Shown here one piece after another: positions 1 through 64,000 of a stretch of DNA of 64,000 nucleotides (within the stretch, counting starts at the first letter, position 1; each line of letters begins with the position of its first letter). The position numbers were made by a program. The DNA is from Treponemataceae bacterium (lineage in GTDB: Bacteria > Spirochaetota > Spirochaetia > Treponematales > Rectinemataceae). The stretch is taken from assembly GCA_963678065.2 (NCBI GenBank), contig CAXXVZ010000005.1, positions 864,001 through 928,000 on the forward strand. Reading direction: 5' to 3'.

Positions 1-3000
1 TTGCGACGATGGCGCGAGCATCGGCGAACGCCATTGTGCCTGAGCGGAATGAGCGACAGCGAGTGGAGCGAATGGCCGAAGAGGGAGCCTGCGACCGATG
101 AGCGTGAACAGCGCTGTTAGTTGCAGTCGTGACCTTCAAGCGCGCTTGGATGGGGAGACTTGTCTCCTCATCCAATACTCTATCTTGCGCGCGTTCTTCT
201 CTTCCTCTTTTCTTAACCCTTATTTTTTTTCACGATTGCAACTAACGTTCTGCCTGTTTGCGACGATGGCGTGAGCATCGGCGAACGCCATTGTGCCTGA
301 GCGGAATGAGCAAAGCGAGTGTAGCGAATGGCCGAAGAGGGAGCCTGCGACCGATGAGCGTGAACAGCGCTGTTAGTTGCAGTCGTGACCTTCGAGCGCG
401 CTTGGATGAGGAGACTTGTCTCCCCATCCAATACTCTATCTTGCGCGCGTTCTTCTCTTCCTCTTTTCTTACCCTTATTTTTTTCTTTCACGATTGCAAC
501 TAACGTTCTGCCTGTTTGCGACGATGGCGCGAGCATCGGCGAGCGCCATTGTGCCTGAGCGGAATGAGCGCATGCGAGTGCAGCGAATAGCCGAAGAGGG
601 AGCCTGCGACCGATGAGCGTGAACAGCGCTGTTAGTTGCAGTCGTGACCTTCGAGCGCGCTTGGATGGGGAGACTTGTCTCCTCATCCAATACTATATCT
701 TGCGCGCGTTCTTCTCTTCCTCTTCTCTTACCCTTATTTTTCTCTTTCACGATTGCAACTAACGTTTCCGGCCTACGACGTTTGCGACCGCACAGGCGGG
801 CGCAAATGTGCCTGAGCGGAATGAGCGAATGCGAGTGAAGCGATGGCCGAAGAAGGAGCCGAAGGCGACTGATGAGCGTGGGCCGTGTTGTTATGCGCAG
901 TTATTTTTGAATATGTCATTAATAATATCAATCACTTCATTACTAAAACTATTTTGCTGATCTTCATTTATTATTATTTCCTTTTTTATTTTTACATAAA
1001 TCCAATCACTATCTTCGCAATACTCAAATCTCGAAGTATCAATATTCCAATTTTCATTTAGTGTATCTTTTTTCAGAGCGACACTAAGTATATATTCCCA
1101 ATATTGTGCGCCTTTATCTACCAAATTTAAATTCAAACCAATAAATATATCATCATTTTTTTTATACTTAATATATCGTCCTTTCGTTGTATCATCATAA
1201 AAATCATTAGCCCATGTTGATAACTCGAAATCCGATCCGATACCATCAATAATCATTTTCCCCGACTTCTCGACCAATTGAATAATCTTACACATAACCT
1301 TTAAAGATTCATGAATATCTTTTGGATTATAAAGCATAGCAACCTCATAAGGTGAAAGGATGGTATCAATTGATGATTTTATTATTAATTCTGATAACAG
1401 GTTTAGTGCTTCAGCTATAATATAAGAATCTTTTTGTAGATCATAACTGAACAAATATCTAATTAGGTCGTCCCAAATTACAATTTTAATAAACGAATAT
1501 TTTAATTTCGCATTTTCAATCTTATCTAGATGTTTATAGTTTTTAGGCAAAATAAATATTTGTCCTTTATAAGGCTTTTTACTATTTATTACCATTTCTG
1601 GATAACTATATATTTGATTGTCCTGCAATGGAGTGTCGATTCGAATTTTGTTTTCAATTAAGTAATAAGCTTTGCTATTAGTAATTACCAAATCAGGAAT
1701 GCCAGTATTATACCTTATCTGAGTAGAACAATGATTTAAATCTATAGAATCAATAGCATTCATATCTATTTTTAAATATGAAAATAATATATCTCTAAAA
1801 TATCTATATTTCAAAAGATTACATAAAATCTCTGTAGATGTATTTTCATCTTCTTTTGTTAGCCCATAAAATATTGATGTAGACCTATTCATATAATATA
1901 TATATATCCTTCAAAAATAATTGCGCATAACGTTCGCCTGCCTACGACGTTGTGGCGAGCATCGGCGAGCCACAATGTGCCTGAGCAGAATGAGCGATAG
2001 CGAGTGCAGCGAAGGCCGAAGAAGGAGCCGATAGGCGACTGATGAGCGTGGGCAGTGCTGTTAGCCGCTTTAGCAAAAGATCCTATCCATATCCCCATTC
2101 TCTGATACTTTTTCTTTTTCTATCTTTCCGTTATTCCCATATACTATATACGCATTTTTACTTTTATCACTTCGGATTATCTGATAGCGATTATTCTCAA
2201 GTACCAATGCACAATTGTCTTCAATCCCAAGAACTTTTTTGTCATGTGTCTTCATAAACTCTATAAACTTTCCTTCCTGCTCTCGCGCGTTAAGATGAGG
2301 ACTATGACATCCACGCATTAGTCCAAGTCCATTTATATATGAATAATTCCATCCATCAGTATTTCCAAAACTTTCTGTATCACTAACTCCATACTCAAAC
2401 CAACATACTGATCCTGCACTTAATCCACTTAAAATAGTCCCTTTTTGAGATGCTTTTACTAGTAAATCTTGTATCCCATATTTTCTCCAAATATCCAACA
2501 TCATTTTCGTATCACCACCACCAACATATATAATATCTGCCATTTTTATTTTTGTTTCTATTTCACAATCATCAATATTTCTGTCCTTTAAACATAACAC
2601 ATCACAGTTACAGCCAAGTTTCTTACCATATACTTCTTGCACAGTCTGAATATATCCTTCCGGTTCTCCACTGGCTGTAGGAATAAAAAGATGGTGAGGA
2701 GATTTCTTTGAACACTTTTCGACAATATAACTATCGATCTCGAATGTTTCACCTGTGCGGATTTCTCCTCCACCAATGGCAATGATTATACTCATGTGGA
2801 ACTATTCCTCTCCATCTTTTGCTATTGCGGCTAACGTTCTGCCTGTTTACGACGATGGCGTGAGCATCGGCGAGCGCCATTGTGCCTGAGCGGAATGAGC
2901 GCATGCGAGTGCAGCGATGGCCGAAGAGGGAGCCTGCGACCGATGAGCGTGAACAGCGCTGTTAGTTGCAGTCGTGACCTTCGAGCGCGCTTGGATGGGG

Positions 3001-63000: not shown

Positions 63001-64000
63001 GGCCTGCGACGTTTTGGTGAGCATCGGCGAACCAAAATGTGCCTGAATGGAACGAGCGCATGCGAGTGGAATGAAGGCCGAAGAAGGAGCCAAAGGCGAC
63101 TGATGAGCGTGGGCCGCGGTGTTAGACGACGTTTTTCAGGAAATCATTTATAAATATGTCTTTCCAGAATTTAGTATAGTCATATTTTTCTTTCTCGATT
63201 GTTATATCGCTTTTTTTTATAAATTCATACAAAAATGCAGAACATATTTCAAATAGTACCCAAAATTGGATATTAACCATTTTTTTTCTCTCATTAATAT
63301 CTGTCATTTGAGAATTTTGTAACAAATTCAAATACTCACAATGAGCATAACTTGATAAATATGAATACAGGAATGAGCTTTGATAAGGAGTAACATTCAT
63401 TATTTTCATTATGTTTTTCCATCCAGGTCTCCATTTTCCTCTATTTTTGTATTCTGCTTTTTGATCTTTAGGTAATATTTTAAAACAATTATTATTGTAT
63501 ACTTTTTTTTCAATTTCGATAATTGCATTTTTTTCTTGTTTTAGTTTTTCAATTCCATCGGCATCTAATGGAATAAAGTGTTGTCTTGTAAGCATCCCCT
63601 CTCGTTCCCAGCTATAATATCTAAATTCCAATTCTTCATTATTTTTGGAATCAATATAGATATAGTAAAATAATAATACTGTTTCTAAAGTTGCTCTATT
63701 TATTGTAAGTATTGCTGAATAATCTTGTACCTTAACTTGTATTTTCCCATCATCAAGATTGGATCCATTTCGCAATGTACACATCGTAATAAAATGACAA
63801 TATATCTTGATAAAAAATTCATAGCCATAGGCTGTAATCCTATCAGGTATTGTTTTTTTATTTTGAATAGCCTTATCCACTTTATCAAATATTTGCATAA
63901 ACTGTACAATTTCATTATCAATATCAATTTTATTAGGATCCATAATCTCTCCTGAAAAATGTCGTCTAACGTTCGCCTGCCTACGACGTTTTGTCCCGCA

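Follow-up and report, generated by a model that had tools for sequence, protein, structure and literature searches.

MITEs and other non-autonomous elements are short, non-coding sequences that carry end repeats, reach high copy numbers and depend on an enzyme encoded elsewhere. Amplified families of non-coding integron cassettes are also already known, and amplification as such is unsurprising to the specialist: in the accessible part of Boucher et al. 2006 (PMC1382264), one such family accounts for 45 of 219 cassettes in V. vulnificus CMCP6 and 34 of 187 in YJ016. This Vibrio family is described there as conserved along its length and restricted to its lineage, with gene conversion suggested and the choice between a selfish and a beneficial nature left unsettled. 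Furthermore, according to excerpts of two other studies, most of the gene-less Vibrio cassettes assayed showed promoter activity, in V. vulnificus 11 of 13 on the sense strand (Blanco et al. 2024, PMC11014356), as did gene-less cassettes of the reverse integrons of Treponema (Tansirichaiya et al. 2019, PMC6557892). With regard to the recombinase, the accessible text of Cury et al. 2016 (PMC4889954) reports enzymes close to IntI but without its specific insertion, which had fewer than three attC sites next to them and were judged not to be IntI.

The window analysed here is a stretch of 64,000 nucleotides whose position 1 corresponds to position 864,001 of contig C5; coordinates refer to the window unless the contig is named. 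It holds 27 copies of a gene-less 257-bp cassette, type A, whose body BLAST recovers at full length 52 times, always on this contig, as the initial annotation had estimated. By its structure, type A is an integron gene cassette, bounded by core sites and carrying its own attC (R''-L''-L'-R') at the 3' end, and it behaves as a discrete unit among varied neighbours, with 52 exact 5' junctions and 12 different core hexamers after it. Its 5' junction opens 52 of the 175 crossover-to-crossover intervals of the array, that is 30% by count and about 7% by length. Fifty copies are intact (253–262 bp each), and in the other two of the 52 the attC is broken by an insertion, giving intervals of about 2.7 kb. 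Since the intact copies sum to 12,874 of 176,886 bp, the 29% share given in the initial annotation holds by count only. The roughly 179 cassettes counted there correspond to attC profile hits on C5, including halves split by an IS, and the array continues beyond contig position 764228, where it had been thought to end, to about 754.7 kb. Among the 91 cassette families of the array, the runners-up have 6, 6 and 4 copies, and a neutral duplication model never exceeded 29 copies in 20,000 runs, in agreement with the earlier view that type A is amplified far above other cassettes. The four diverged gene-less cassettes mentioned earlier were recovered as well (265, 265, 265 and 258 bp), and belong to types B (three copies) and C (one copy).

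The intact copies comprise 40 distinct sequences out of 50 and their flanks vary, which rules out an assembly artefact and upholds the earlier statement that this is no collapsed repeat. A separately deposited metagenome contig, which may come from the same strain or a very close one, carries the same cassette beside a second, truncated copy. In the contigs of four public runs, the summed depth is far higher over bins that bear the repeat than over unique cassettes; this depth is not a copy number, as attC repeats are counted too, and the best holders are perhaps the source sample.

Within the window, all copies lie on the minus strand. Single copies are found at 2835–3091 (array index 76), 6411–6668 (73), 8460–8716 (70), 13312–13568 (61), 16118–16376 (58), 17562–17817 (54), 28019–28276 (40), 37217–37472 (32), 38532–38787 (30), 42367–42622 (25), 47947–48204 (19) and 60280–60536 (9). 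Pairs occupy 9660–10174 (67, 68), 10885–11400 (64, 65), 26533–27048 (42, 43) and 29359–29873 (37, 38), and three-copy runs are located at 23765–24535 (46–48) and at 1–762 (79–81), the last copy of the latter being cut by the window edge. The copy at 17039–17296 (56) is chimeric, combining a type-A body with another attC subtype, and adjoins a type-B cassette (17297–17561, index 55, minus strand), which has the architecture of type A in different letters; two further type-B copies and the type-C copy lie outside the window. Additional type-A copies are present outside the window, including the first cassette after attI (contig 931314–931570).

The organisation of the family can be followed in the cassette with index 80 (246–503, minus strand, from crossover to crossover), which consists of a body of about 132 bp and its own attC. 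The latter (246–378, minus strand) is private to the family, as its 5' signature is present in 51 of 52 type-A copies and in none of 123 other cassettes, and its 3' signature in 49 of 52 and one of 123. The terminal stem P1 pairs the arm at the cassette 3' end, which includes R'' (372–388, plus strand), with the 5'-end arm formed by the upstream attC core site and its extension (488–504, plus strand), and contains one G-T wobble on the bottom strand. Between these arms, a 6-bp GC stem, P2 (396–401 with 443–448; 396–448 on the plus strand), surrounds the P3 hairpin (402–431) and an 11-nt bulge, followed by an unpaired purine tract of about 39 nt on the cassette strand (449–487, minus strand), which is pyrimidine-rich on the bottom strand. 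This tract is 92% A+G in the first copy and is the site of most body variation. A loop-bulge pseudoknot appears possible by eye in types B and C and is absent from type A.

Variation in the body avoids paired columns (5 of 71 variable, against 19 of 61 unpaired ones; p = 0.0005), and 35 of the 36 mismatches in P3 are A-C on the top strand, and thus G-T wobbles on the bottom strand, the one that recombines at attC. When types A, B and C are aligned, 95% of cells are paired and 15 of 37 pairs have changed on both sides, in a comparison that spans three lineages only and draws its structure from the same sequences; the unpaired cells of type C are due to MAFFT displacing its P3 by two columns. 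Folding of the circular form favours the bottom strand (−49.8 against −42.6 kcal/mol for the top), and the RNA fold z-scores are −6.2 for the top and −8.0 for the bottom strand. A long terminal stem is general in the array, with a median end repeat of 22 bp over the 90 cassette families scored, and every family shows the same wobble direction in its end repeats, an indication of a substrate for DNA recombination. That P2, P3 and the purine tract are conserved would be just as expected of a functional RNA or a regulatory element.

The initial annotation saw no ATG-started frame in the body. Two ATG-led frames do exist, one of 18 codons that starts in the hairpin on the top strand and enters attC in 48 of 52 copies, and one of about 32 codons on the bottom strand. 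These frames lie within the P3 stem and neither is conserved in types B and C, and a GTG frame that crosses the unit stays open in only 27 of 48 copies, on which grounds a hidden protein is rejected. Furthermore, the type-A frames are disrupted by non-triplet indels. Since its variation is not codon-like and no ORF above 150 bp is conserved, type A fits an amplified non-coding family. The reported lack of a sigma-70 promoter or terminator over a tandem run was confirmed, as 0 sites were detected in 1 kb spanning a triple run and the intrinsic terminator pattern was not found; among the bodies, types A and B have no sigma-70 site and type C a single weak one (8/12). Rfam gave no hit in the window at the gathering threshold and none at E ≤ 1 in three loci.

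Compared with the described systems, type A shares with the Vibrio families of Boucher et al. (in the part of PMC1382264 available) a high paralogy within one array and full-length conservation, a likeness at the level of description. It differs in its higher share (52/175), in the small size of its body (about 130 bp) and the defined fold of the bottom strand, and in its platform, a same-direction recombinase without the IntI insertion. The promoter cassettes of Vibrionaceae and Treponema, as excerpted from PMC11014356 and PMC6557892, are likewise ORF-less with their own attC, and TMB4 stands first in a reverse integron, but type A has no sigma-70-like site and its body is largely base-paired. 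No full-length match to type A was found in 60 relatives, with just three short purine-run hits; the claim of lineage specificity therefore stands for the exact sequence and fails for the phenomenon, which is seen in relatives and in V. vulnificus. Indeed, other gene-less families are amplified in the relatives G676, G678 and G327. A pattern scan of the phylum matched 86 of 401 genomes, mostly with single hits at control level, and G676 and G678 were followed up. None of the nine hits of a viral scan had cassette ends.

The recombinase gene (contig 931895–933076, minus strand, outside the window) encodes a 393-aa protein with a HARP-like N-terminus that lacks the IntI-specific insertion. Its TIGR02249 match is below the cut-off and split (4–171, 234–314), and against the canonical IntI of the same genome it shows gaps of about 31 and 10 aa. 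A search of the genome contigs with this recombinase returned two loci. A putative attI-like site lies beside the gene, judged by position, followed by same-direction cassettes. Canonical integrons (IntI, attI and attC), in the accessible portions of PMC4889954 and Wu et al. 2013 (PMC3607928), share the attI-like junction, the cassette direction and the folding of R/L-box attC sites on the bottom strand, and the reverse orientation of the integrase is as in Treponema integrons, but they differ from this locus in the recombinase. End repeats are about 22 bp here against at most 8 contiguous bp beside the canonical IntI of the relative G038, and the insertion-less cases in the available text of Cury et al. 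(PMC4889954) had fewer than three attC sites against about 175 here. In relatives, too, an insertion-less recombinase goes together with long end repeats of the cassettes; no description of a platform with a HARP-domain, insertion-less recombinase was found in the literature covered, which leaves out most subscription papers.

The placement of the copies is random. Type A forms 27 singles (25 in the initial annotation), 6 pairs, 3 triples and 1 quadruple, where shuffling predicts 26.1, 7.7, 2.2 and 0.6, so that the tandem runs of up to four, though real, are no evidence of a special mechanism. Adjacencies number 15 against 15.2 ± 2.8 expected, and adjacent copies differ at 9.5 columns against 10.1 overall (Mantel p = 0.71); these random runs, with neighbours no more alike than random pairs, indicate that copies entered one by one and exclude both tandem duplication and unequal crossing-over as the cause of the amplification. 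Only three neighbour pairs recur among other families, which excludes block duplication as the driving process. In the same way, a type-A copy does hold the first position after attI, but at a 30% chance by count this is no signal. No neighbour bias emerged in seven tests (lowest p 0.05, uncorrected), the two sigma-70 tests among them being low in power because the classifier flagged just 5 of 123 cassettes. Similarity does not decay with distance along the array, and 67 of 105 site pairs fail the four-gamete test; a recent clonal burst fits poorly with 40 distinct mosaic haplotypes. Among families other than type A, copy number drops with length (rho −0.32, p = 0.002). Identical duplicates are found for 10 of 50 type-A copies and 12 of 123 others (odds ratio 2.3, p = 0.08, not significant). 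The replication strand could not be assigned because the GC skew is flat.

Placement is thus random, the attC private, the stems kept and the reading frames lost. At roughly even chances, type A is a minimal 'selfish' cassette, neutral for the host, which the recombinase of the array cuts out and re-inserts at a somewhat higher rate than gene-bearing ones. In this respect the earlier proposal of a selfish or structural cassette, amplified far beyond neutral expectation, holds up as the best reading, but without its tandem-run and first-position arguments. On the single-stranded bottom strand, the P2 and P3 hairpins would keep the cassette ends about 120 nt apart, so that the end repeat, present on every cassette here, could zip locally. 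Such zipping would favour an excised circle, in which attC runs without a break into a long stem and should recombine well with attI. Every added copy would be a new source, at little cost from expression in first position, and a modest per-copy advantage, about threefold in a toy model, could run away to 30% of the array. At r ~3 this model gave 41–66 copies, a next family of 4 and 88–108 types; together with the random placement, it indicates that a host benefit is unnecessary for reaching this share. A net gain would require a source besides cut-and-paste, with copying from the sister chromosome or DNA taken up from kin as the probable candidates, and recombination between copies would later shuffle the variants. 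The genome has comEC and dprA genes, and excision from transforming ssDNA has been demonstrated in V. cholerae, according to an excerpt of PMC12614218.

Several observations weigh against the selfish reading, among them the promoter activity of most gene-less Vibrio cassettes assayed (PMC11014356). Types B and C have the same architecture yet only 3 and 1 copies, and the surplus of recent duplicates (2.3-fold) falls short of significance. Moreover, equilibrium folding, which covered 48 of 169 sites, appears to run against the canonical route. The pairing probability of the canonical R box was at most 0.0009 at all 24 sampled attC sites with type A on one side only, against a median of 0.05 (range 0–0.98) at 12 gene-gene sites and 0.92–0.94 at 12 copy-copy sites, a comparison that is uneven because the end repeats of long cassettes fall outside the folded window. 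Read plainly, a lone copy would lock its sites, and faster excision would then need a non-canonical substrate. A rather unlikely version of the selfish reading supplies one: one strand would fold into a four-way junction built from the 22-bp end repeat, the flanks and both inner attC hairpins, and the HARP recombinase without the insertion might resolve this junction in one exchange, freeing the cassette circle. As the smallest self-zipping substrate, the 257-bp unit would then outcompete gene cassettes.

Copies might instead be selected without any faster copying, if an untranslated, structured unit at attI spared the cost of expressing a random gene or dampened downstream expression; on the bottom strand, the hairpin with the C/U tract behind it might also stop antisense transcription through Rho. 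Poorly translated cassettes reduce downstream mRNA in class 1 arrays (as excerpted from PMC11511950), families without a long top-strand frame are likewise multi-copy (6, 3, 2, 2), the same hairpin-then-pyrimidine order recurs in a 164-bp family of G327, and the first cassette after attI is gene-less in G000 and G676. However, the first cassettes of the other relatives scanned exceed 500 bp, no intrinsic terminator pattern was detected, and the alternation with gene cassettes expected of a silencer is at odds with random adjacency and the lack of bias in what comes next, which leaves this explanation unlikely.

The low pairing at one-sided sites would also suit a ratchet, in which the R boxes on both flanks are tied up by the locally zipped end repeat and a copy, once inserted, is seldom excised or lost. 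Resistance to loss supplies no new insertions, though, and copies are rare where long retention would concentrate them (2 of the oldest 25 positions, p = 0.006, a region chosen after looking). In three of six groups of identical copies, a lone copy is the oldest (76, 127, 150), which suggests that lone copies do get copied, provided that the source was not outside the genome, and retention is quite an unlikely cause. Similarly doubtful is a structured small RNA of the sRNA-Xcc1 kind or a decoy RNA, most probably made from the bottom strand, with more copies giving a higher dose. ORF-less cassettes are able to encode sRNAs, as stated in the excerpt of PMC6557892, and the fold z-scores, the compensatory changes across the three types and the G-U wobbles, which suit a bottom-strand RNA as well as ssDNA, agree with this. 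Against it stand the absence of a promoter pattern on both strands and of an Rfam match, the shared wobble direction of all end repeats, and the P3 arms, for which, as guide or operator, neither an exact nor a paired match was found outside the array, but just three single arms with one mismatch. An internal promoter that boosts downstream cassettes, for which the Vibrio and Treponema precedents speak (PMC11014356 and PMC6557892, in part), is highly improbable given a body mostly of GC stems without a sigma-70-like site there or in the triple run; short-leader cassettes are preceded by type A not significantly more often than the rest (15/37 vs 30/86, p = 0.55).

Type A also stands close to MITEs, with which it shares its short, non-coding, end-repeat-bearing and high-copy nature and its dependence on a separate enzyme. 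It differs from them in being confined to the array and in its predicted attC-type movement, and its junctions carry neither transposase-type ends nor target duplications.

Whether amplified non-coding cassettes are parasites or serve their host has been asked since 2006, and a 257-bp substrate makes the question testable. Type A suits such tests, being small and structurally resolved, with natural low-copy counterparts in types B and C. The recombinase beside the array lacks the domain used to define IntI, and its recurrence in relatives together with long end repeats suggests a capture platform missed by intI-based annotation. If the four-way-junction reading is true, type A would offer a minimal substrate, ready for use, with a class of recombinases left out by current definitions of integrons.

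The amplification of the 257-bp gene-less cassette (type A, a body of about 132 bp with its own attC) is real. An iterated profile search recovered 179 attC matches on the minus strand of contig C5 and one half site on contig C2. By crossover points, the array, within which the window lies, comprises 175 intervals between contig positions 931,570 and about 754,700, and thus continues beyond the 764,228 at which the initial annotation had ended it. Upstream lies a gene for a 393-residue tyrosine recombinase (C5 931,895-933,076, just beyond the window), which is transcribed toward the array. 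Out of the 175 intervals, 52 open with the same 5' junction, as had been estimated; 50 of these are intact copies of 253-262 bp, while the remaining 2 have an interrupted attC. The previously reported share of 29% holds by count (30%), but by length type A accounts for only about 7% of the array. Together, the 175 cassettes represent 91 families, the largest with 52, 6, 6 and 4 members and the others smaller; no run among 20,000 of a neutral duplication model, fitted to this number of types, passed 29 copies, versus the 52 observed. Full-length copies are confined to the C5 array, with no full-length match in the 60 relatives searched; a metagenome scan added one near-identical locus, possibly from the same strain. 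Insertion sequences lie inside attC several times, splitting the sites (C5 near 839155, 825338, 799117 and 764299), and two type-A copies are among the cassettes split in this way.

The placement of the copies fits independent insertion, one at a time, via site-specific recombination, since runs and adjacencies are random, similarity does not decay with distance, neighbour pairs seldom recur and a private attC subtype accompanies the type-A body. The tandem runs, which had been singled out, match the shuffled expectation (27, 6, 3 and 1 from single to quadruple), with 15 type-A adjacencies observed against 15.2 in shuffles. Among 48 copies, a comparison that leaves out two with chimeric attC, the 13 adjacent pairs differ by 9.5 columns versus 10.1 for all pairs, and no decay of similarity along the array was detected. 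Only three neighbour pairs are repeated among the other families. The suggestion of a recent burst fares poorly as a single recent clonal event, which is disfavoured by mosaic variants: all four gametes occur at 67 of 105 informative site pairs, which suggests that copies exchange sequence or that a few sites have changed repeatedly. At array indices 52-56 (window ~17000-21200) and 124-127, three families repeat in the same order, and the type-A copy at 54, between two of them, is identical to that at 127, possibly the outcome of a single episode in which one region underwent several excisions.

In the type-A body, the terminal stem (P1) measures 17 bp and the GC stem (P2) 6 bp; a purine tract of 39 nt lies between them, and P2 encloses a bulge of 11 nt and a hairpin (P3) with 14-nt arms. 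Variable columns are rarer in stems than in loops (5/71 versus 19/61, p = 0.0005), and of the 36 mismatches in P3, 35 are of the A-C type when read on the cassette strand, which corresponds to G-T on the bottom strand, the one recombined by integrases (PMC12614218). A covarying pair within attC has the same wobble bias (14 versus 2). In four diverged cassettes this plan is preserved in a different sequence, with both sides altered at 15 of 37 pairs; as the structure was drawn from these same sequences, in three lineages, this covariation gives support rather than a probability. Searches of the cassette for a conserved reading frame, a sigma-70 site, an intrinsic terminator and an Rfam match were all negative. 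In the diverged types B (window 17425-17562) and C (locus L161), a common 5-nt P3 loop, absent from type A, is complementary to its own bulge, a possible pseudoknot. In the type-A attC interior, a small loop (alignment columns 203-206) has at least 8 variants among 48 copies, with fixed flanking stems.

Type A reads as the standard frame of this array with a hairpin replacing the gene, because long end stems and the adjoining purine-rich nucleotides occur array-wide. In the 90 families scored, cassette ends pair over a median of 22 bp, each family having its own inverted repeat (for example, the cassette at window 894-1931), and position 11 is mismatched in all 90 (80 A-C, 10 A-A). The 12 nt inside the end stems are purine-rich in the 87 long families (0.67 and 0.72 versus 0.57). 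Relatives at the family, order and phylum level have similarly long end repeats next to homologues of the array-head recombinase. In G038, where the array lies beside a canonical IntI, none of the 24 listed intervals, some of which span missed sites, pairs beyond 8 contiguous bases. The long repeats may stem from the way in which such cassettes are produced or recombined. Families of 500-630 bp that have no long frame on the top or the bottom strand also occur in several copies (6, 2 and 2) and end in purine tracts; located at array indices 13, 15, 50, 107, 133 and 172, at 16 and 66, and at 57 and 121, several of them in the window, they could be promoter cassettes.

By every test run, type A is an integron cassette, and it belongs to a known kind, the amplified non-coding cassette family. 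In V. vulnificus, one such family accounts for 45 of 219 and 34 of 187 cassettes, for which Boucher et al. posed the choice between selfish and beneficial (PMC1382264). Type A differs from the known families in its minimal size, its resolved bottom-strand fold and its non-canonical platform. Relatives carry independently amplified gene-less families that differ in sequence. In G676 (C1 ~4.36-4.43 Mb, L143-L147), a short family without a conserved frame occupies 14 of about 52 sites, including the first after attI, with nested-stem bodies of 251-265 bp and a comparable GC stem that leads into an A-rich motif. In G678 (C1 2.28-2.41 Mb, L151-L157), one with AT-rich bodies of 437-543 bp occupies 17 of about 91-97 sites; both genomes were picked by their match to the short-cassette pattern, so these counts are not a prevalence estimate. 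The largest family of G327 (3 of 35; L072 10015-14804) has 164-bp tract-plus-hairpin bodies, in which the letters of the tract vary and its purine content stays at 77-81%. No repeated short family of this kind was found among 8 in G051. FlaA, a spirochaete filament protein, is found in two same-order and two same-phylum genomes, with no match in this genome; the lineage is inferred from this to be a spirochaete one.

We favour a copying advantage of type A that would require no host benefit. Shorter cassettes are copied more, also apart from the type-A family, and identical duplicates are 2.3-fold commoner in type A, a non-significant difference between unequal yardsticks. A toy queue model with arbitrary parameters, which speaks to sufficiency only, matches the observed family spectrum at a roughly 3-fold advantage. 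Net gain needs sister copying or DNA uptake, because cut-and-paste alone yields none; ComEC and DprA are encoded in this genome, and excision driven by DNA uptake has been described in V. cholerae (PMC12614218). The main result against a copying advantage is that a lone copy is predicted to draw both neighbouring R boxes from the canonical attC fold, so that either excision uses the zipped form, through a putative four-way junction, or the cassette resists loss. Two observations argue weakly against pure retention: in 3 of 6 groups of identical copies the oldest member is a lone copy, and few copies lie at the distal end of the array.

The array-head recombinase matches Phage_integrase and SAM-like domains and, weakly and N-terminally, HARP (E 1.5e-5, narrowly short of the curated cut-off). 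In the IntI-specific region, about 31 + 10 residues are missing from it and likewise from its homologues in G009, G051, G327 and G676; loci with this type include L040, L069, L071 and L164, and 74 of 400 genomes of the order encode homologues at E <= 1e-55. Recombinases that lie near attC sites but lack the insertion are, in the judgement of Cury et al., not IntI (PMC4889954). A second integron in this genome has a canonical IntI (C3 97196-98137, L001) pointing toward the first cassette of its own small array, where the attC type is different and short; this IntI could act on the C5 array in trans. TIGR02249, the canonical IntI model, gave no match over its cut-off in any of the 8 tested relatives, most of them draft genomes, that have this type of array or recombinase, and in G678 the nearest recombinase of this type lies far from the array. 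The recombinase platform at the array head is possibly of greater interest than the cassette amplification itself.
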